Source: Cetorhinus maximus (taxonomy: Eukaryota). Taken from it: a stretch of 64,000 nucleotides of DNA. Under the pieces are notes generated by a model. It made no database searches. It saw only the letters and a list, made by a program, of their open reading frames with translations, and was not told where the DNA came from. The stretch spans positions 135,470,001-135,534,000 of the forward strand of contig NC_135882.1 in the NCBI RefSeq assembly GCF_964194155.1. Direction: 5' to 3'. Positions 270 to 63,618 of the stretch are shown piece by piece. Both the position numbers and the translations under genes were made by a program. The number at the start of each line of letters is the position of its first letter. The stretch's first letter is position 1.

Positions 270-600
270 GTGGTGCTGAAAGGATGTTTCCCCTTGGGGG
301 AGAGACCAGAACTATGGGACACAGTTTAAAAATAAGGTGCTTCCCATTTAAGGTGCAGATGAGGAGAAGTTTTCTTCTCTCAGAGGGTCATGAATCTTTA
401 GAACTCTCTTTCCCAGGGAGGGGTGGAGGTAGGGCATTTCATATTTTTAAGCTAGAAGTAGACAGACTCTTGACTAACAAGGGAGTCAAAGGATATAGGG
501 GATAGGCAGGAAAGTGACATTGAGACCACAGTCAGATCAGCCATGGTGGGGCAGGCTAAAAGGACACTCCTGCTCCTACTTCTTATGTTGGTTTGTTCAT
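270..600 (+). mobile_element. CR1 LINE 3' fragment
   Basis: MFPLGGETRTMGHSLKIR is the typical CR1 ORF2 C-terminus, followed by a CR1-type 3' UTR (gatcagccatg...cctgctcct). Confidence 0.8.
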
Positions 601-905
601 GATGGCTGAATGCCAAAGTGATGAGGGTGAAAGTTGAGGTCTGGTTTGGATGTTATTGTAGGAATGAGGAGGGGAATAATCCGGTTTGTAGGGTCGGAGA
701 ATGCTGCACGTGTGGGGTTATGAGCTGAGTTATAGGGCTAGAGTTAGCTTCAAGCTAGGGAGGAAGAAATATTAAACCTGTATAAAGGAGATTAGTTTCC
801 TCAAGAATAACAAGGATTGGAAATATGGTCCATAGTTGTAATTGATGTCCAATTAATTTTACAATTTCCTGGAGAATCTACTGTCATTGATGAGGTCACA
901 CAAAC

Positions 906-1921
906 TGTTGGATCCAGCGCCCTTGGTTTGTTGGGACTAAAGGATCCGGGTTGCACGCTTGTTTTGGGGTGACCGAGTTGCTACAGAGACAGAGAACATC
1001 AGTAGGTGGTTGTTAGAATAAACACATGGGGCAGAATTTTGCCCTTGATGGGCGGGCGGGCCCCATCTGCTCGGTGGTGGGCGGGCAGCCGATCGCCGCC
1101 ACCGAAATGGGCCCCGCCGCCATTTTAAGTGGGCGGGCCAATTAAGGCCCACCCAGCGGGCTGCCCAACGGGAAGCGCTATGCGCTTCCTGTGTGGGCGG
1201 GGGGGGGGGGATTCCCCAACTGTCAGAGTGCGCTCTTTCACGCATGTCTCCCTGAGGCAAAGTGCTGCCTCAGGGAGATCGCTGAAAGGCTGGCAAATGT
1301 AAAAAATAGAGCAATAAAAAATTCATTAACATGTCCCCCTCATGTGAAAATATCACACGAGATGGGACATTTTAATGAATTAAACAAAAACTATATTAAA
1401 CGTTTTTAAACCCGATATCAAACCTCATCCCGCCACTGGATGAAGTTTGTAAAAAAATCTCCTACCTGCCTGCCCGTTGGGCCCATGTGCTGAGCCGAAG
1501 TTCGCACAGGCTCCTCAAAATCGTTGACAATTGGCAAGTTAAGGACCTTAATGAGGCCTTTAATTAATGGCGGGCACACGTCCCGCTGCTGTGTGCGCCC
1601 AATGACCGAAATATCGCGATGCCGCGCACTGTCATCAGGACGCTCGCACGACGTCAGCGCGCAGCATTTTCAGCGCTGACGTGCGGGCTCCGCCACCCGC
1701 ATTTCAGCCAGAAAATTCTGCCCATGCTGTTTATTTACAAACTAAACTCAGCAGCTGCACTTGTGCGCTCACAATTCAAAACTCTGCCTTCACTCATCCG
1801 TGTCTAACTCAAGGCACTCCCACATAGGTAGCCCACGCTACTCTGCTATGGGGTATTAAGATCATGTGATCTTACATTACAACACTTGTCTTAAAGGTAT
1901 ATTACACATCAGATTACTACA
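906..1921 (-). repeat. 3' LTR of Gypsy copy 1, interrupted by a MITE
   Basis: tgttggatccag...tactaca aligns with 6114-6423 once 1029-1726 is removed. Confidence 0.93.
1029..1723. mobile_element. PIF/Harbinger-type MITE (~0.7 kb family A) inserted in the LTR
   Basis: TIRs gggcagaatttt / aaaattctgccc with a perfect 3-bp TSD (ATG). The sister LTR shows the empty site. CpG-rich, so relatively young. Confidence 0.9.
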
Positions 1922-1991
1922 TCCCTTCCCCTTTACTGAAAAATACATTTTACAATTTTTTTCAATATATCAAGTTATTTACACAGATCAA

Positions 1992-4900
1992 TTATTTATA
2001 AATCAGACTCTCTTGGGGTTTCCTTACGTGTGTAGAACATCTCAGCTCCACAGCTTCTGAAGTTTGATTTGGAACCTCCTTTACTGGAGTCGTCTGAGCA
2101 TCTAGTTCTTCAGTAGATACCTGTAAATCTGTTTCTTCGACTCTTTCAGGTACAGTCATTTTTGTACTCGGTTGAGTTCTTTCAATAGGAGATGTTGATT
2201 CAGTCTTGAACACTTGTGGGTATTTTGTTTCTCCTCTTCTTACGTGATCCACATGTCTCCTTTATTACTCGGTCTTCGACTTTCACGTGGTAGGATAGAG
2301 GTCTAATTACTTATTTCACCAAACAACCATGTTGGTCCTTCTCTAAAATTTTTCACAAATACTTTCTCTCCTACATTAACCATTCTGTCCCGACTGTGAC
2401 AGTCATGTCCAATTTTCTGACTTCCCTGCCTTCATTCTACTGCACACCACCCCACCCCCCACCACCACCCCCTGCACGTTTGGCATAATTAGGCTCAGCA
2501 TCTATTGGAGATGGCACTTCATCAACAATTATGCAGATGTACACATGTTGTCATATGAGGGGTTGTTCTAAAATGGAAAAGAAATTGTGCTAATTTAGTC
2601 ACTATAGAATCTCCAGGCAATTTCTTCATGCCAGATTTGAAAGCCTGAACTGCACTCTCGGTGAGTCCATTTGAAGAAGTGTGGTATGGAGATGTTTTCA
2701 CATGAATAATACCATTGAGGCTTGTAAATCAGTTAAATTCAGCACTCGTGAATGATATTCCATTGTCTGATACCAGCACTTCAGGTAGTCCATTGATTGC
2801 AAAACTTTGTCGTAGTTTGTCTTTTGTAGCAGAAGATGTGGGTGACCTCACTTCGTATATGTCCATCCATTTTGAATGAGTGTCTACGATAAGTAGAAAC
2901 ATTGTTCCCATAAAAGGTCCCACATAGCCGATATGTACTTGTACCCATGGCCTACCTGGCCTCTCCCAGATGTGTAACGGAGCTGTTGCAGGTAATTTTT
3001 GTACTTGTTGACACTGCACACAACTTAAATCTAAGCTTTCTGTTTCTCCATCCATTTCCGGCCACCACATATAGCTACGTGCTATTGCCTTTGTTTTGGA
3101 AATTCTGGGATATGCACTGTGAAGTTAAGATAACGATGGCTTTCGTCCTTTTGAAGGAGCAACCACTCGGACGCCCCACAATAAAATATTTTCTTGGCTG
3201 GTTATCTCACAGTTTCTCTGGAAATATGGTTTCATTTCATCAGATCATTGTTTTTGTGACCAACCTTGAAGACCTTGATTTCGCACTTTGGATAAGACCG
3301 GGCCTCGACTTGTCCAATCTTTAATTTGTCTTGCACATTTTGGTGATGAGTCCAGGAATTGGAACATCTTCATCTTTTACTTGCAAGGGTAAATGACTGA
3401 ATGCATCTGCTTTTGCAATTTGACTTCTGGGTCTATGAGTAAAAGTATACTCATACGCTGCCAAGATCAAAGCCCATCTTTCTACTCTTGCTGAGGTTAT
3501 CAGGGGTGTAGCATTGTCTTCACCGAATAATCCTAGTAATGGCTTGTGGTCTGTTATGATGCTAAAATGATGACCCTGTACATATTGATGAAACTTCTTA
3601 ACACTGATAATGATTGCCAGGCCTTCTTTTTCAATTTGAGAGTTTTTTTTCTCTGCAGCACTGTGTGTTCTTGACATATATCCTATAGGTCATTCTGATC
3701 CATCATCCATTCAATGGGAAAGCACTGCTCCCACTCCATAGGGTGATACATCGCACGTTAATATCAACTCTTTTTTGGGGTCAAAATGTACTAGAAGTGT
3801 AGATGATTGTAACAACTGTTTCACTTTTGTGAAAGTTTCTTCTTGTGGTGTTTGCCATGGCCACCTCTTGTTTATCTTGAGCAAGTAATACAGGTGGTGC
3901 CAGTTCCATTGACAAATTAGGCAGGAAGCGTCAACAGTAATTGATCATCCCGAAGAATGATTTCAGTTCAGGCGTATTCTTTGGCTCTGTGGCTTCTTTA
4001 CTGGTTTTCACTTTTTCTTCGACTGGACGTAGGCCTTATGAATCTACCTTGTGGCCTAGGTAAGTTACCTCTTTGGCCTGGAATGTGCACTTTTCCTTTT
4101 TCAATCTCACTCCAACCTGCAAAAAACATTTTAAAACTTCTTCCAAGTTCATCAAATGTTCCTTTTCAGTGAGTCCAGTCACGAGAACATCATCCAAATA
4201 AACTACAATGTGGGGCAGTCCCTGTATTAAACTTTCCATGGGTTCTTTGGAATATGGCGCAAGCAGAAGATACACCCAAAGGTAAATGGGTGTATAGGTA
4301 CAATCCCTTTGTGTATTTATGGTGACAAATTCCCTTCTCTAATTCTAATTGTTGTTAGGCATGACTCATATCTAACTGCATGTGGACCGTTCCGCTTGCC
4401 AGTTTAGCGTCTAACTCTTCAATTTTAGGTATGGGATGTCTATCCAATTTTGCCACTTTATTGACTGTTAATTTGTAGTCCCCACATGTTCCAATGCTTT
4501 GGTCAGGTTTGAGAACAGGTACAATTGGAGCTGCCCACTCTGAAAATTGTACTGGTTGTATCACTCTCGGTTTTTCTAATCTGTCCAGTTCGGTGTCTAA
4601 CTTATCCCATATTGCCTTCAAGTGTCCTGGTGTTGCCTCTGGATCTACATGAATATTTGCTTGTAGCCCCTCAATTTTTCCAAGTTCTTCCTTGAAAACT
4701 GAGGCATATTTTTGTAGTATCTCTGAAAGCCCATTTGTCCTCAGTTACAAGATTTCAGTCCATTCCAATTTAATTTCTTTCAGCCAGTTTCGTCTGGGGA
4801 GACTAGGTCCCTTGCCTGCTACTGCCATAAAGGATAATTTCACTGTTTGACCTCCGTAATGTACTGTGACTTTACATATGCCCGTGACCTGTATATCTTC

Positions 4901-32949: not shown

Positions 32950-33465
32950 TCTTTTATTCTTTCATGGGGTGTGGGCATCACTGGCTAGGCCAAGCATTTA
33001 TTGCCAATCCCTAATTGCCCTTGAACTGAGTGGCTTGCTTGGCCATTTCAGAGAGCAGTTATGAGTCAACCACATTGCTGTGGATCTGGAGTCACATGTA
33101 GTCCAGGCCAGATAAGGATGGCAGATTCCCTTCTCTAAAGGACATTAGTGAACCAGATGGGTTTTTTTACAAGGATGGTCATCATTACTGAGGCCAGTTG
33201 TATGTTTCAGAGTCATTAACTGAATTTAAATCCCACCAGCTGCCGTAGTGGGATTTGAACCCCTGTACCCAGAGCATTCCCCTAGACTTCTGGATTACTA
33301 GTTCAGTGACATTGCCACTATGGTCGGGATTTTCCGGCATCGTCATGGTGGGACCTGCCGCAGGAGATTCAGCAGCCCAGCCAAAAGTCCAATGATTTTC
33401 AGCGGGACCGGACGATCCCGGTGGTGGGCGGGGCCGGAGAATCCCTTCCTATGTCACCATCTCCC
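32950..33465 (-). mobile_element. tRNA-headed SINE made of the LINE head plus the LINE tail
   Basis: Head matches 38985-39298 and tail matches the 3' end at 36500-36560. Carries a mini-MITE. Confidence 0.8.
33322..33449. mobile_element. Tourist-like mini-MITE (family C)
   Basis: Homologous to 15488-15616; perfect TAT TSD. Confidence 0.88.
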
Positions 33466-34654: not shown

Positions 34655-35900
34655 GCAGTAATATAGCAGCGGTCATGCATTCTTGAGAATAGAGACCTGG
34701 TGTATATTATAGAGAATAGTTCCTGCATATAATAGGGCAAATAACAGATCCTGTATATATTACAGAGAATCTTCTGTGTGCTTTGGATAATGACAGACCC
34801 TATGGGCTGAATTGTCATCCAGAAGTGGGGGTGAGTTTGAGGCGGGCATGCTGGAACTTTCTGCTACCAGCTGGTGTGCCAGTCTGTAGGAATGTTCCTT
34901 TCTCTGGCCTATTTTCTGAGAGCAGTCTTCAGGGATTGGCAGCTACCCACTAGTGGCCAATCAAAATGCCAATTAACGGCACTCTTCGCATGCCTTCTGG
35001 ATTTTCCACACTCGGACAGGCCCCCCCAAAAGTGGCTGGAACACTTAGGTGGCAGCCTCCTGGTGGCATGCCGGAGTGACGGGTCAGAGGTATGACCCGT
35101 AAGGCAGCTGAGCATGAAAGTGCGGGGCTCTGAGGGCCACAGCAAAGGCCACAGGCCATCCTGTGAAGAGACTCTCCCTCCGCAATGACGGCCACAGTAT
35201 GTTTTGTAGCATTTACGGCACCTTCACCTTGAGGTGCCCTCAGCGCCCCCACCTTCAAAGAGGGTGCCCACCTCTCCCAGTGGTGCTATCATCTTCCCAT
35301 AGCCTTTGTTCCTCCCATTGGCCTTCCTGGCTCTGAAGCTCGCCCGTCTTCCTTAATTGGACATGTCTTCCAGAGAGGGCTCCTCAAAAATCTTCTCCAG
35401 TGTCCTACCACGGCCACTTCTGGGTTCCTGACCCAGAATTCAGCTTGGCTTTGAGACCGGGCCCCCGGAAATAAAATTCAGCCCTACATATATTACGGAG
35501 AATAAGTGACCTGTATATGTTATAGAGAATAACAGATCAAGTGTATATTATAAAGATTAGCAGACCCTGTGTTTGTTATATAGAGAGTAACAGACCTTGT
35601 GTATATTATGGAGTTTAGCACACCCTATGTAAATTATAGCAATTAGCAGGTCCTGCATTTATTATAGAGAATAACATACCCTATATATATTATTGATAAT
35701 AGCAGATCCTATGCATGTTATAGTGAACAGCAGACTCTTTGTATATTGCAAAAATCAGAGGCCCTTCATATATTATCGAGGATAGCAGACCTTGTATGTA
35801 TAAAAGGGAATAGCTGACCCTGTGTACATTACTGAGAATAGCAAACTCTGTACATATTGCAGAGAACAGCAGACCATGTGTATATGTGAAGAAAAGCTGT
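34655..35900. repeat. Degenerate ~28-bp minisatellite split by a MITE
   Basis: Unit ~gagaatagcagaccctgtgtatattata, repeated at 34655-34803 and 35485-35900. Confidence 0.8.
34804..35484. mobile_element. Harbinger-type MITE
   Basis: TIR gggctgaatt / aattcagccc; TSD TAT/TAC. Confidence 0.8.
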
Positions 35901-37615
35901 GAACACTGTATATTACAGTGTTTATCTGATCCATTAGCTTGATGATGTCTTCAGTCACATTTGCAAACATCAATATTCCAACAGGTGTCACTGTTTACAA
36001 ATCGGACGTGGGAATGCTGCTGGGTGTTTGTTAGCTCAGAAAGGCTGAATCAGATGTAGAACTTTCATAGTATCCCAGTGATTTGGAATATCTAATTTAG
36101 CAAAGAGTAAATATCGGTTTAAGAAAATATTACACATTCAGCAGCTATTGTTCATTATTTTAATGGAATATTTATAATAAATGAGCTGATTAAAATAAAC
36201 ATAGCATCCATCGGTACTGAAAAATGTGTAGCTGAGAGATGATAATTCAATCAGAGCTTTAAGTACCATGTCTTGGACCCTCATCTCTAAATATGGAGGT
36301 TTGTTGGTTCAAACTCCACTCTCAGATTTGAACACCTGATCTCGGTCAACAACACAGGGTAATACTGAGGTAGTACTGCACTGTCAGGCTGGTCACTCTA
36401 TGTTAAATGCAATTGTTGCCTGCCTGTTTCACTGGTTCCAGTGATTGACATCCTTCCAACTACAATAGATGATGGCAATTGTTTAAAAATTTATTATTTC
36501 AGAGGATGTGGGCATCACTGGCTAAGCCAGCATTTATTGCCTGTCCAAAATTGCCCTTGAGAAGGTGGTGGTGAGCTGCCTTGAATCGCTGCAGCCCCTG
36601 TGATGTAGGAACACCCACAGTGCAGCTAGGAAGGTCTGTGAAGGAACAGTGATATAGTTCCAAGTCAGGATGGTGTGTGGCTCAGAGACGAACTTGCAGG
36701 TGGTGTTGTTCCCATACATCTGCTGCCCTTGTCCTTCTGGGTGGTAGAGGTTGCAGGGTTTGAAGGTGCTGTTAAAAGAACCTTGGTAAGTTGCTGTAGT
36801 GCATCTTGTAGATGGTACACACTGCTGCCTCTGGGCATTGATGGTGGAGGGAGTGAATGTGGTGGTGGTGGTGGATGAGGTGCCAATCAAGTGGGCTGCT
36901 TTGTCTTGGATGGTGTCGAGCTTCTTGAGTGTTGTTGGAGCTGCACTCATCCAGGCAAGTGGGGCGTATTCCATCAGACTCCTGACTTGTGCCTTGGACA
37001 GGCTTTGGGGAGTCAGGAGGTGAGTTATTTGTCACAAAAATTCCCAGCCTCTGATCTGTTCTTGGAGCCACAGTATTTATATGGTTGTTTCAGCTCAGGT
37101 TCTGGTCAATGGTAACCCCCAGGATGTTGTAACATGGACGGAATTTACATATTGTCTTACTGCCACTGATCAGTGTGTTTTGTATGTAAGTGATGCGTGA
37201 TTTATTACCCTCAGAGTGGTTGTCCCAATTTATATAATTCCAGCACCAAGCTCATTTTTAGGTATGCCTGGTGCTGTTCCTGGCATGCCCTCCTGCACTC
37301 TTCATTGAACCAGGGTTGATCACCTGGCTTGATGGTGATGGTAGAGTGGAGGATATGCCAAGCCATGAGTTTACAGATTGTGGTTGAGTACAATTCTGGG
37401 GCTAATGGCCCACAGCACTGCATGAATACCAAGTTTTGAGTTGCTAGATTTGCTTGAAATCTATCCCATTTAGCACGATGGTAGTGCTACACAACACAGT
37501 TGAATGTACCCTCAAGGTGAAGACGGGGCTTCATCTCCACAAGGACTGTGCAGTGGTCGCACCTACCAATGCTGTCATGGACAGATGTACCTGTGACAGG
37601 TAGAAATGGTGAGGT

Positions 37616-38349
37616 TCCGTTTTGCGGAACACCTGCGGTCTGTCCGCAAGAAAGACCCAAACCTCCCTGTCGCTTGCCATTTTAACACTCCACCCTGTTC
37701 TCTTGCCAACATGTCTGTCCTTGGCTTGCTGCATTGTTCCAGTGAAGCCCAACGCAAACTGGAGGAACAGCACCTCATCTTCCGACTAGGCACTTTACAG
37801 CCCTCCGGGCTGAATATTGAATTCAACAACTTTAGATCTTAAACTCCCCCTCCCCCCATCCCCACCCCGTTTCTTTCCCCCCCCCGCTTTTTTTTCAATA
37901 ATTTATATAGATTCTTCTTTCCCCACCTATTTCCATTATTTTTAAATCTAAAACTAAAACCTTTAGTCTTTCCACCCCACCCCCACTAGAGCTGTACTTT
38001 GAATATCCTGTCTTCCATTCTTGATTAGCACTTTTCTCAGACAAAGACCACCACCTTCGACACCTCTTTGACCCTTTTGTCTGTGACATCTTTTGATTAT
38101 CTGCTCATCTCCACAATCACCACACCACACCCTCAATGTGTCTCCCCCCCCCACCCACCTTAAACCAATTTATATATCTCCCTTCTTCTAACTATGCTCC
38201 AGTTCTGCCGAAGGGCCATGAAGGCTCGAAACGTTAACTGATTTCTTCTCCGCCGATGCTGCCAGACCTGCTGAGTTTTTCCAGGTAATTCTGTTTTTGT
38301 TTTGGATTTCCAGCATCCGCAGTAGCTTTTAGCTTTTTGTTTTTATATA
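37616..38349 (+). mobile_element. Penelope-like element (family 1) 3' part: GIY-YIG C-terminus, 3' UTR and hammerhead
   Basis: RFAEHLRSVRK..LPVACHFN...RKLEEQHLIFRLGTLQPSGLN* is a typical PLE endonuclease end. TGAGG is duplicated at both sides. Confidence 0.9.
38200..38240 (+). ncRNA. Minimal type-I hammerhead ribozyme motif (core mutated)
   Basis: CAGTT-CTGccGA-A-GGGCC-atgaa-GGCTC-GAAACGTT-AACTG: stem I CAGTT/AACTG, stem II and palindromic stem III. Confidence 0.7.
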
Positions 38350-39869
38350 TGAGGATGAGGTCAAGTAGGTTTTTCCCTCTTGTTGCTTCTCTCACCACCT
38401 GCTTCAGACCCAGTCTAGCAGTTATGTCCTTTGGGACTCAGCCAGTTCAGTGATGAACATTGCAGCCCCCCCACTCAGAGTACATTCTGTATCCTTGCCA
38501 TCCTTAATGCTTCGTCCAATTGGTGTTCAACATGGAGAAGTACTGATTCATTAGCTGGGTGGGGGAGAGGGAAGAGGGATTGGTGGTAATCAGCAGGAGA
38601 ATTCCTTGCTTATGTTTCACCTGATGCCAAGAGGCCTCATGTGATCCAGAGTCAACATTAAGGACTCCGAGGCTGCAACTCCCTCCTGACTGTATACCAC
38701 TGTGCTGCCACCTCTGCTGGGTCTGTCCTGTAGGTGGGAAAGAACCTACCCAGGTATGGTGATGGTGGTGTCTGGGACATTGTCTGTAAGGTAAGATTCA
38801 ATGAGTATGACTATCTCAAGCTGTTGCTTGACTGGTCTGTGGGACAACTCTCCCAATTTTAACACAAGCCCCAAATGTTAGTAAGGACCACTTTGCAGGA
38901 TCGACAGAGCTGGGTTTGCTGTTATCATTTCAGTGCCTAGGTCCATCTGATTCCATTCCTTTTAGGCTTTGTAGCAGTTTGCTAAAACTGAGTGACTTAC
39001 TAGGCCATTTCAGAGGTCAGTTAAGAGTCAACCACATTGCTTTGGATCAGGAGTCACATGTGGGACAGACCAGGTAAGGATAGCAGATTTCCTTTGCTAA
39101 AGGGGCATTAGATGGGTTTTTTAAGACAATCAGCAATGGTTTCATGGTCACTATTACCAAGATTAGCTTTTATTTCTAGATTCAGTAATTGTATTTAAAG
39201 TCCACCACAGCTGCTATGGTGGGATTTGAACCTGTGACCCCAGCCATAGCCCGGGTTGTTGGGTTACTAGTCCAATGACATTCCCACTACACCATCTCCA
39301 CTGCAGTCTCAGAGCTTTATTGAGCTCAGGTGAGATCATCTGCTGCACTTATTTTATTGGCAGAACAATCCAATTCTAGAAAAGCAAATTCTGCCACAAA
39401 TGCTGCACATGAAGCTGTCCCTTGCTGCTGGTATGGGATGATCTCTGCTGACATCTTGTTTGCAGGGCTGGCATGTGCTTTGAAGATTTTGAAACCACAT
39501 GTCATTGTGGCAGCAAATTCCTGCCCACAGCTCGTGTCGCCATTTGCATCAATCATCAGCTAGAGTTTCGCATTTGTCCTGATTGATGCTGTGGTTACAT
39601 TAGAGATCACAGAATAAAACTCCTATGAAGGCTCCTCAATTTCCCAACATAACATCAGTGGAAAACCCCCTACTGAAAAAAATGGCAAAAATCAACACAT
39701 AGCATTTTTTCCAGTTTCCACCCCATCTACCACTGGAGGTGCAGCGGGAAGTCTGGGTGAAATGTCATATTAGTTTCAGCCACCTCTATTTTAGTGAGTT
39801 CTCCAAGTTTTCTGGCCAGCATTCCTCCCTTAATTGTTACCGAGGTGAACTGATCATTCATCTCATGAC

Positions 39870-40944: not shown

Positions 40945-41227
40945 CTTCTATTTTTATTACCTTTTTCATTCATTCTTGGGATGTGGGTGTCACTGGCATT
41001 TCTTGTCCACCCATCTCTAGTTATCCTTGAGAAGATGGTCAGAGTCCTTCTTTCATCATTTGGCCTGAAATACCTAAATACTCAAAGTGTTGTAAGTTCT
41101 TGGAATGAAATGCTAAGAGGACTAAGAACCTACTGATGCTCCCACAGATTTAAATTGTTTTATAAAGTAAGCTCATGTACCATGTAGGTAAGAAATAGTA
41201 GACCCCACTTACAGTTCTAGGCTGTTG

Positions 41228-41435
41228 GGTGTGGTTCAGTGGTAGCATTCTTGTCTCTATATTACATGGTTGTGGGTCTGGCTGTAGATCAGTGGTAGCA
41301 TTCTTGTCTCTATATTATATGGTTGTGGGTCTGGCTGTGGTTCAGTAGTAGCATTCTTGTCTCTATATTACATGGTTGTGGGTCTGGCTGTGGCTCAGTG
41401 GTAGCATTCTTGTCTCTATATTACATGTTTGTGGG
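41228..41435 (+). repeat. Four tandem 53-bp copies of a SINE tRNA head
   Basis: gtagcattc recurs at 41242, 41295, 41348 and 41401. The last unit continues into B box gggttcaaatccc and the SINE body. Confidence 0.92.
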
Positions 41436-41589
41436 TTCAAATCCCACCATATAGCCTTGAGCACAAAATCAATGCTGACACTTCAGTGCAAGTCAGAGAG
41501 TGCTGTGCAGTTGGAGGTGCATCTCCTGATTAGCTGGTAAACTGAAGTCCTGTCTGTCTTCCTGGATGGATGTAGTGGATCCCTTTTTT

Positions 41590-43165
41590 TACTCATTCCT
41601 GGGATCTGGGCATCACTGGCTAGGCCAGCATTTATTGCCCTTGAGAAGGTGGTGGTGAGCTGCCATCTTGAACTGCTGCAGTCCATGTGCTGTAGGTACA
41701 CCCACAGTGCCATTAGGGAGGGAGTTCTGGATTTTGACTCAGTGACAGTGAAGAAACGGCGATATACTTCGAAGTCAGGATAGTCAGTGGCTTGGAGGGG
41801 AACTTTCAGGTGGTGGTGGTCCCATGAGTCTGCTGCCCTTGTCCTTCTAGATGGTAGTGGTTGTGGGTTTGGAAGGTGCTGTCGAAGGAGTGTTGGTGAG
41901 TTCCTGCAGTGCATCTTGTAGATGGTACTCATTGCTTCCACTGTGCATCGGTGGTGGAGGGAGTGAATGTTTGTGGATGGGGTGTCAAGTAAGTGGGCTG
42001 CTTTGTCCTGGATGTTGTCAAGCTTCTTGAGTGTTGTTGGAGCTGCACTCATCCAGGCAAGTGGGGAATATTCCATCACATTCCTGATTTGTGCTTTGTA
42101 GATGGTGGACAGGCTTTGGGGAGTCAGGAGGTGAATTACTCTCCACAGGATTCCTAGACTCTGACCTGCTCTTGTAGCCACAGTATTTATATGGCTAGTC
42201 CAGTTCAATTTCTGGTCAATGATAACTCCCAGGATGTTGATAGTGGGGAATTCAGCAATGGTAAAGCCATCGAACATCAAGGTGTGATGACTGGATTCTC
42301 TCTTGTTGGAGATGGTCATTGCCTGGCACTTGTGTGGCGCAAATGTTACTTGCCACTTGTCAGCTCAAACCTAGATATTGTCCAGGTCTTGCTGCATTTG
42401 GACATGGACTGCTTCAGTATCTGAGGAGTCACAAATGGTGCTGAACTTTGTGCAATCATCAGAAAACAACCCCACTTCTGACTCTATAATGGAAGGAAGG
42501 CCATAGATGAAGCAGCTGAAGATGGTTGTGGACACTATCCTGAGGAACTCCTGCAGTGATGCCCTGGAATTGAGATGATTGACCTCCAGCAACCATCCTC
42601 CTTGTGCCAGGCATGACTCCAACAGCATAGAGTTTGCCCCCTGATTCCCATTGACTCCAGTTTCGCTAGGGCTCTTTGATGCCACACTCGGTCAAATGTT
42701 GTCTTGATGTCAAGGGCATTCGCTCTCACATTACCTCTGGAGTTCAGCTCTTTTGTCCATGTTTGAACCAAGGCTGTAATGCTGAGTGACCAAATTGAGC
42801 ATGAGTGAGCAGGTTATTGCTAAGCAAGTGGTGCTTGATAGCGCCGTTGATGATCCCTTCCATTATTTTTCTAATGATCAAGAATAATCTGATGGGGCTG
42901 TAATTGGCCGTGTTGGATCTGTTCTGCTTTTTGTGTACAGGACATACCTGGACAATTTTCCACATAGCCAGGTAGATGCTAGTGTTGTAGCTGTACTGGA
43001 GCAGCTTGGCTAGGGGCATGGCAAGCTCTGGAGCACAAGTCTTCAGTACTATTGCCGGAATATTGTCAGGGCCCATAGACTTTGCAATATCCAGTGCCTT
43101 CAGCTGTTTCTTAATATTACGTCGAGTGAATCAAATTAACTGAAAACTGGCATCTGTGATGCTGG
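41590..43165 (-). mobile_element. CR1/L2-group LINE, 5'-truncated, RT pseudogene, inserted in a Deu SINE
   Basis: GPDNIP..LKTCA, ALDIKTTFDRVWH, LFSDD (RT catalytic motif), ILGV.IDQKLNW. Confidence 0.9.
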
Positions 43166-43328
43166 GGATCTTTGGAGGATGGTCCTCTGATGCTACTTTG
43201 AAGATGAGCAGTTCTGCTGATGGTTTGGTCAATGTTTATCCCTCAACCAACATCTGAAACAGATGATTAGATCATTACTTCATTACAGGCTATGGAAACT
43301 TGCTGTGCATGTGCAAATTAGCAACTGT

Positions 43329-54547: not shown

Positions 54548-54892
54548 TTCTTATTCGTTCATGGGATTCGGCATCGCTGACTAGGCCAGCATTTATTGCC
54601 CTTGTTGAGGGGGCATTTTTAAGAGTCAACCATATTTCTGTGAGTCTGGAGTCACATGTAGGCCAGACCAGGTGAGGGCAGCAGATTTCCTTCCCTAAAA
54701 GACATCAGTGAACCAGATGGGTTTTTATGACAACTGTTTCATGGTCATCATTAGACTTTGAATTCCAGATTTTTATTGAATTCAAATTCCACCATCTGCT
54801 GTGGTGGGATTTGAACTCAGAACCCCAGAGCACTACCCTAGATCCCTGGATTACCAGTTCAGTGACAGTACCACTGCACTACCACCTCCCCA
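54548..54892 (-). mobile_element. tRNA-headed LINE head+tail SINE
   Basis: Homologous to 32950-33465. Confidence 0.8.
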
Positions 54893-58384: not shown

Positions 58385-58757
58385 TTTTTTCTTCATCCTT
58401 TCATGGGATGTGTGCATCACTGGCCCAACTCAAATTGCCCTTGAACTGAGTGGCTTGCTAGGCCATTTCATCGGGCAATTAAGAGTCAACTACATTGCTC
58501 TGGGTCTGGAGTCACATGTTGGCCAGACCAGATAAGGATGGTAGAGCGGACATTAGTGAACCACTAGTGGGTTTTTTCAATAATTAATGATAGTTGCATG
58601 GTCACCATTACTGATAAATTTCAACTCCAGATTAATTTATTGAATTTAAATTTCACCAGCTGCTGTAGTGGGATTTGAACCCATGGCCCCAAAACATTAG
58701 CCTGGGCCTCTGGATTACTAGTCCAGTATCATTACCATTACACCACCATCTTCCCCT
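58385..58757 (-). mobile_element. tRNA-headed LINE head+tail SINE
   Basis: Same junction (gcccttgaactgagtggc) as 32950-33465. Confidence 0.8.
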
Positions 58758-63060: not shown

Positions 63061-63618
63061 CAAAAACAAAAATACCTGGAAAAACTCAGCAGGTCTGACA
63101 GCATCTGCGGAGAGGAACACAGTTAACGTTTCGAGTCCATATGACTCTTCAACAGAACTAAGGAGAAATAGAAAAGAGGTGAAATATAAGCTGGTTTAAG
63201 GTGGGGTGGGACAGGTAGAGCTGGATAGAGGGCCAGTGATAGGTGAAGATAACCAAAAGATGTCATAGACAAAGGGACAAAGAGGTGTTGAAGGTGGTGA
63301 TATTATCTAAGGAATGTGATAATAGGTGACATTAAGGGTAGAAAGCAGGACGAGCAAGGTACAGATAGCCCTAGTGGAGGTGGGGTGGGGGGAAGGGATC
63401 GAAATAGGCAAAAAGGTAGAGATAAAACAATGGATGGAAATACATTTAAAAATAATGGAAATAGGTGGGAAAAGAAAAATCTGTATAAATTATTGGAAAA
63501 AAAGGGGGATCAGAAAGGGGGTGAGGATGGAGGAGAGAGTTCATGATCTAAAATTGTTGAACTCAATATTCAGTCCGGAAGGCTGTAAAGTGCCTAGTCG
63601 GAAGATGAGGTGCTGTTC
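63061..63618 (-). mobile_element. Penelope-like element (family 1) 3' part with hammerhead
   Basis: Reverse-complement homolog of 37760-38310 with a 13-bp TSD (agtaaatYttcag). Confidence 0.9.
63120..63160 (-). ncRNA. Minimal type-I hammerhead ribozyme motif
   Basis: Minus strand: TAGTT-CTGtTGA-A-GAGTC-atatg-GACTC-GAAACGTT-AACTG. Confidence 0.72.

Follow-up and report, generated by a model that had tools for sequence, protein, structure and literature searches.

A candidate RNA polymerase III-transcribed coding retrotransposon with a tRNA-Thr-derived head in Cetorhinus maximus

Introduction

By the working rule, long interspersed elements (LINEs) are RNA polymerase II (Pol II) messages, and the retroposons that RNA polymerase III (Pol III) makes are short and non-coding (PMC3531059). 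Among the former, Zenon LINEs have been catalogued in sharks, rays, coelacanth and hagfish, all of them presented there without ORF1 and with a poly-A tail (PMC13343379). Here, we analyse a stretch of 64,000 nucleotides (nt) from Cetorhinus maximus (assembly GCF_964194155.1, contig NC_135882.1, positions 135,470,001 to 135,534,000 of the forward strand), hereafter the window. On its minus strand, at 36482-39300, lies a dead copy of a LINE-type element of ~3.27 kb, in a genome of 4.0 Gb. The family of this copy appears to match the published elasmobranch Zenon LINEs of the CR1 group. It begins with a tRNA-Thr-derived head, from which we propose that it is probably transcribed by Pol III through its whole 3.27 kb, since a tRNA-derived promoter is combined with an absence of Pol III stop signals over 3.2 kb.

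Both the family and the absence of an ORF1 from it have been published before. The elasmobranch consensuses given there (CarCar_, RhiTyp_, ScyCan_, SquAca_ and HypSab_Zenon-1) are 3,244-3,314 nt long, against 3,273 nt here, with no ORF1 and an A tail, and CarCar_Zenon-1, compared by eye over its first 400 nt, is near-identical to our family majority (PMC13343379). All five shark and ray sequences begin with the tRNA-derived head of our family, which in the ray consensus is contiguous with the start of the apurinic/apyrimidinic endonuclease (APE) domain. The hagfish and coelacanth consensuses show no such head in their first 400 letters, the coelacanth 5' end looking poorly resolved. The main text of that study contains no match to 'tRNA' or 'promoter' and one to 'SINE', in a reference, and does not discuss the head, the purge of terminators, the missing AUG or the partner short interspersed element (SINE) described below.

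Several other systems share parts of this architecture. The lepidopteran Zenon is also a CR1-group LINE of ~3.3 kb with one open reading frame (ORF) that repeatedly yields short two-end derivatives, one of which, the internally deleted Persaeus, lacks both homology to tRNA and a Pol III promoter, whereas the shark derivative is a tRNA-headed SINE (PMC6740152). The bipartite RTE and Vingi SINEs likewise fuse a small-RNA head to LINE-derived 5' and 3' pieces; there the head is described on a non-coding, deleted LINE, whereas in the shark family it sits on a coding one (PMC5786205). The T+ SINEs B2, Dip and Ves may resemble the shark element in their Pol III head, in AATAAA near the 3' end and, in some copies, in a T-run followed by an A tail, yet are described as short, non-coding and mammalian (PMC8466645). 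A search of the open literature, with Repbase, Dfam and subscription journals outside it, returned no description of a tRNA-headed autonomous LINE. As a precedent, some BovB consensuses reportedly carry SINE pieces at their 5' end; RTE and Vingi are reportedly the sole donors of bipartite-LINE SINEs.

The window copy and its tRNA-Thr-derived head

The copy in the window aligns to the family majority in three pieces, nt 6-977 (78% identity), 973-1338 (86%) and 2611-3269 (81%), and is laid out as follows, with RT standing for reverse transcriptase.

39215-39300, minus strand: tRNA-Thr(AGT)-derived head, with A box TGGTGTAGTGG at 39294-39284, anticodon loop CTAGTAA at 39270-39264, an insert of ~20 nt in the variable arm, and B box GGTTCAAATCC at 39232-39222
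38986-39212, minus strand: body common to the LINE and its partner SINE, family nt ~95-315
38895-38985, minus strand: leader; its conserved AUG (38956-38954) is not in the APE frame and, in the family majority, starts an upstream ORF of 35 codons
38350-38894, minus strand: N-terminal part of the APE endonuclease (KVVLTNIWGL...), frameshifted in this copy and interrupted by stops; a sister copy matches Pfam Exo_endo_phos_2
37615-38349, plus strand: nested Penelope-like 3' piece with a GIY-YIG-type C-terminus and a CCTCA duplication on both flanks
37251-37614, minus strand: last part of APE and first part of the linker, corresponding to family nt 973-1338 with 86% identity to the majority
37130-37250, no strand: 121 unrelated nt where the family has nt 1339-2610, which hold the RT core
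36550-37129, minus strand: C-terminal ORF segment, which corresponds to family nt 2611-3217 and is 81% identical to the majority
36482-36549, minus strand: 3' untranslated region (UTR), with AATAAA at 36538-36533 and a T5 run plus A3 at the end; common to the SINE tail

The initial annotation had read an A-box-like and a B-box sequence at the 5' end of this copy, followed by the APE motifs LTNIWGL, IVILIESYL and DRPSRGGSTVVY. Both boxes and all three motifs are present on the minus strand, the motifs spread over two frames because the copy is frameshifted. APE begins at 38894, ~405 nt past the 5' end of the element, which leaves no room for an ORF1, as had been claimed. Two further marks of decay went unmentioned there, a 735-bp Penelope-like insert in APE and the loss of family nt 1339-2610, the stretch with the RT core.

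The family head (nt 1-92) is identical to a tRNA-Thr(AGT) gene of the same genome (locus L228, called by ARAGORN) at 49 of 70 positions, a score that none of 2000 shuffles equalled; for the decayed head of the window copy the figures are 46/66 and 7/2000. The head has kept the anticodon loop and carries 20 nt inserted in the variable arm. In the majority both boxes fit the Pol III consensus, whereas the intervening spacer differs from one species to the next, and the two boxes (11 nt each) hold no shared non-CpG variant among copies. Rfam tRNA gave no match to the window head or to the heads of 10 other copies, perhaps because the 20-nt insert hides them, and single-sequence folding of five copies did not give a cloverleaf consistently (z between +1.2 and -2.3). 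Ten of 12 matches to a canonical-spacing tRNA-Thr pattern (L226-L237) are element heads without the 20-nt insert; five of these sit on LINE-type copies, and one (L229) is called a tRNA by ARAGORN. The sole ARAGORN tRNA call of the window, at 58661-58749, is likewise a head of this family and not a tRNA gene. Counts of tRNA genes in such genomes may therefore be inflated by family heads.

Known SINE families were considered as sources of the body, the motif tests covering three Deu and two Meta motifs. SacSINE1 of the DeuSINEs is likewise a shark tRNA SINE, but the Deu motifs are absent from the element body (0/3 within 1 mismatch), so the Deu domain was rejected as its source; a Deu-type repeat elsewhere in the genome gave no significant alignment to the element. 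Membership of the MetaSINEs, in which a Meta domain directly follows a head that is likewise tRNA-Thr-like, was rejected on the absence of both Meta motifs (0/2) from the body (PMC5499810, PMC4824008, PMC7245038).

Recurrence of the head-APE junction across the genome

The family majority of 3,273 nt was built from uninterrupted copies of ~3.2 kb, which were found at 17 of 40 extended loci and lie 5.4-13.9% from their majority. With a head-plus-APE query, all 39 non-self matches listed span the junction, the ranking by whole-length similarity being biased to such matches. A bias-free sample was therefore drawn with the APE interior alone as query, of whose 39 non-self matches 29 were taken. 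Twenty-eight of these copies follow the same upstream path; 25 reach the part shared with the SINE, 19 reach the tRNA head and 14 extend to within 8 nt of the 5' end, while one is truncated within APE. No alternative 5' region is shared among the 29, and their upstream flanks gave 19 pairwise matches, none in register at both break points. Exact motifs across the body-to-leader junction have 6,334 and 4,961 matches in the genome (controls, 2 and 0).

The junction is thus present in thousands of copies and is not unique to the locus, a possibility that the initial annotation had raised along with that of ORF1-bearing relatives. We found no ORF1 in the family among the 29 copies, which come from the best 40 matches of one query, so that a distant ORF1-bearing lineage could escape. 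What had been described as a SINE-LINE chimera stands as a family-wide coding retroposon with a SINE-type promoter; its lack of ORF1 is not unusual, given that all Zenon elements in the published survey lack one (PMC13343379), and the family had already been catalogued. The head was likely gained in elasmobranchs, in the shark-ray ancestor, as suggested by the headless hagfish and coelacanth consensuses (400 letters each) and by the lepidopteran derivatives described without a Pol III promoter. A target-site duplication was found in none of the 9 (out of 17) full-length copies with both ends located, the longest shared strings being 4-5 nt and out of place.

Shortage of Pol III terminators

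The shortest Pol III terminators are given as TTTT and TVTTT (PMC8466645). The sense strand of the element contains none of either, against 22 on its antisense strand and 19 in a CR1 family of the same genome. Mononucleotide shuffles of the element hold 8.0 on average and reached zero in 0 of 5000 trials, and a null that preserves both protein and codon usage gives a mean of 4.3 (P=0.0034). Among 63 distant relatives, which are the metagenome-contig loci with a match of >1.5 kb out of 80 loci, the minimum is 3. The shortage extends to shorter runs: runs of three or more T number 6 in the element against 22 expected (CR1, 39 against 36.6), and the observed/expected ratio of TT is 0.69, the minimum among the 63 relatives being 0.86. 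Among copies, the main internal hotspot for T4 is family nt ~1122 (window ~37465), where CpG decay has turned TTTCG into TTTTG in 17 of 70 copies and so created a Pol III terminator.

The 80 metagenome loci showed no blastn match to the head plus body; a B-box pattern matched one of them, 768 nt upstream, and ARAGORN at a relaxed threshold gave noise. Contigs of four putative RNA runs cover the repeat throughout and are uninformative on start, strand and polymerase.

The 3' end

The majority has a 3' UTR of ~55 nt, with AATAAA at nt 3229, ~40 nt from the element end, and an A tail after it. Of 72 LINE-type ends, 61 have a run of five or more A no further than 22 nt from the end. Four or more T followed by at least three A occur in 19 of these 72 and in 5 of 41 ends of the short type, against a background of 0.9%; four internal T-A4/5 sites, each surveyed in ~60 copies, have 0-2 T4 runs nearby. 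This arrangement, which may correspond to that of the T+ SINEs, is suggestive of a terminator ahead of the tail, and is counted as no more than suggestive because T-runs may arise after insertion.

Coding constraint and translation start

The family majority has one frame at nt 302-3217, with 972 codons and one CpG-type stop, and Pfam matches to RVT_1 and Exo_endo_phos_2 in natural copies point to a single ORF with APE and RT. The nearest proteins are ~42% identical. Of 72 variants shared among copies, 42 are at third positions and 40 are synonymous; the family ORF is therefore under purifying selection. No intact full-length ORF was present among the loci scanned, the longest natural frames among those listed being 459 and 634 aa.

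The start of translation is less conventional. The majority has no in-frame AUG before APE, its first Met being codon 145, whereas a Met precedes APE in 30 of the 31 metagenome relatives whose upstream frame is closed. Both this genome and the five published elasmobranch consensuses conserve an AUG at nt 348, the start of a 35-codon frame that is out of register with APE; this offset is kept by the modal AUG-to-APE spacing (9 of 25 copies), and two copies have in-frame spacing. A -1 shift at GCA-AAG, at nt ~425, would join the AUG frame to KVLLTNIWGL, where homologues begin the domain. We regard this shift as speculation, since the leader variants (n=7) favour neither frame.

Two observations touch the same region. 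About one fifth of copies carry leader deletions of 11-14 nt between short GGAC/GACC repeats at family nt 356-392. Many metagenome relatives (L153, L156, L157, L168-L207) have a 2A-like peptide, GDxExNPGP, just before APE, of a kind known for CR1-type elements; none occurs in the shark family.

Partner SINEs

A SINE of ~380 nt corresponds to the element minus its middle, joining nt 1-315 to nt 3207-3273 in most of 33 matches to a query that favoured this main junction. Other junctions are 318|3188, 292|3208 and 292|3225. An exact motif across the main junction (315|3207) has 5,873 matches in the genome, against 0-2 for controls. Three short copies and a truncated LINE accompany the element in the window.

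32953-33320, minus strand: partner SINE, family nt 16-315 joined to nt 3207-3273
54551-54891, minus strand: partner SINE that joins nt 292 to a point near nt 3225, a different junction; falls with the younger LINE subfamily
58444-58745, minus strand: head and body copy, nt 11-315, ARAGORN tRNA-Thr(agt), tail unconfirmed
41593-43179, minus strand: 5'-truncated copy of the same LINE, family nt 1636-3272, 88% to the majority

A tree was built from 76 heads (44 LINE and 32 SINE, leaving out duplicates and 7 unclassified rows). Most SINEs fall near older LINE copies, including that of the window, with weak support, and two SINEs with the 292 junction are nested in a younger LINE clade (100/94). The starred branches of the tree force at least two changes, and two or more origins of the partner SINE are likely. 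The later SINE, at the least, is likely a deletion product of the LINE, because the 292-junction SINEs nest within that younger clade. By the usual criteria for tRNA SINEs (SINE2), a size of <700 bp and non-autonomy describe the ~380-nt derivative and not the 3.27-kb element with its constrained ORF; the tRNA-derived head with A and B boxes is found in the 3.27-kb element also.

Proposed mode of transcription and its alternatives

Taken together, we suggest that the family may be an autonomous shark and ray retrotransposon, with a terminator-purged mRNA of 3.3 kb made by Pol III, polyadenylation like that of T+ SINEs, translation without cap or in-frame AUG, and SINEs generated by single deletions. 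We give this full reading, drawn from sequence comparison, a probability of roughly 0.45. TFIIIC would bind the A and B boxes, and Pol III would start ~10 nt upstream of the A box, giving a sharp GGGGAG 5' end, and could read through the ORF because selection had removed TTTT and TVTTT. The RNA would end near AAUAAA and the U-run and be polyadenylated as in mammalian T+ SINEs. Uncapped, it would have to be translated from a non-standard start, speculatively either a non-AUG codon or the conserved out-of-frame AUG followed by the -1 shift at GCA-AAG. Target-primed reverse transcription by an APE-RT protein is established for LINEs, and the encoded APE-RT would copy the element RNA in this way. 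Internal deletions that spared the head and the last ~70 nt would then yield ready-made Pol III SINEs.

Several points weigh against this proposal. Runs of four or more T, taken alone, are not clearly depleted under a codon-permutation null (P=0.094) or a dinucleotide Markov null (P=0.2), so the terminator signal is largely a general shortage of TT, which need not stem from selection on terminators alone. Box conservation is weak evidence for Pol III, given how short the boxes are and that the anticodon arm varies no more than they do. The controls comprise one in-genome family (CR1) and metagenome relatives that are 27-42% identical and may lie outside Zenon. At the 3' end, 53 of the 72 LINE-type ends do not show the pattern of four or more T and then A, and in T+ SINEs the shortening of A tails is reported to go with T amplification (PMC8466645). 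An uncapped RNA without an in-frame AUG must, moreover, still be translated. Translation of an uncapped RNA would not be needed if labour were split, with Pol III making the copied template, in effect a 3-kb 'coding SINE', and the protein supplied in trans from capped Pol II read-through of a few copies. Such a division would account for the terminator purge and the sharp 5' end, it suits a majority that lacks the in-frame AUG found in 30/31 relatives with a closed upstream frame, and from the thousands of SINE copies it is evident that the protein acts in trans. However, the ORF of headed copies is under purifying selection, which is most easily kept if the copied RNA encodes the protein, and a capped read-through RNA would meet the same missing AUG; we consider this arrangement rather improbable.

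Also unlikely, if to be taken a little more seriously, is a Pol II-transcribed LINE with a relic head, in which a captured tRNA-SINE 5' end serves as an ordinary 5' UTR or as RNA structure and the scarcity of U-runs stems from something else, for instance avoidance of splice acceptors or of U-rich decay signals. By definition, LINEs are transcribed by Pol II (PMC3531059), AATAAA stands ~40 nt before the element end, TT depletion accounts for much of the T4 absence, and neither the headless lepidopteran Zenon nor Persaeus, which derives from it, has a Pol III promoter (PMC6740152). This explanation sits poorly with the CR1 control and the 63 relatives, presumably Pol II-transcribed, which show no T-run shortage, with the confinement of the purge to the sense strand, and with a majority in which both boxes fit the Pol III consensus although the stretch between them differs from species to species. 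The window holds many SINEs with this head, which could in principle have landed by chance just upstream of a 5'-truncated LINE at this one locus; the colinear junction in thousands of copies and in the consensuses of five species, with no SINE tail between head and ORF, refutes this. If transcription by Pol III is real, a successful vertebrate LINE with a tRNA promoter would break the rule that links LINEs to Pol II, and would provide a natural case of translation of a long Pol III transcript as well as a one-step route from LINE to SINE. The Pol III claim is directly testable through box mutants, T-run insertion and 5'-end chemistry.

Nested Penelope-like element and other features

The insert in APE gave no match in Pfam, and we presumptively call it Penelope-like on the basis of its motifs. 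A longer relative in L031 carries YIDD and YCIRC..YIGET motifs. Further Penelope-like copies lie at window 63061-63618, L031:6127-7941 and L036:4546-5157, and this family is young, given that the L036 pieces are 94-98% identical to the nested insert.

Two loci, L034 and L035 (contigs C741 and C207), are near-identical with the same flanks, which points to duplication or assembly redundancy. One family copy adjoins an open frame (L038:2482-3108) that we take to resemble the RT of a long terminal repeat retrotransposon. At window 41226-41456, the start of another tRNA-like head stands four times in tandem as a 53-nt unit and is followed by a head with a weak Rfam tRNA match (19.8 bits, E=1.8), presumably of SacSINE1 type. 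A degenerate tandem array of a 28-nt unit, in 14 copies, occupies window 35489-35885.

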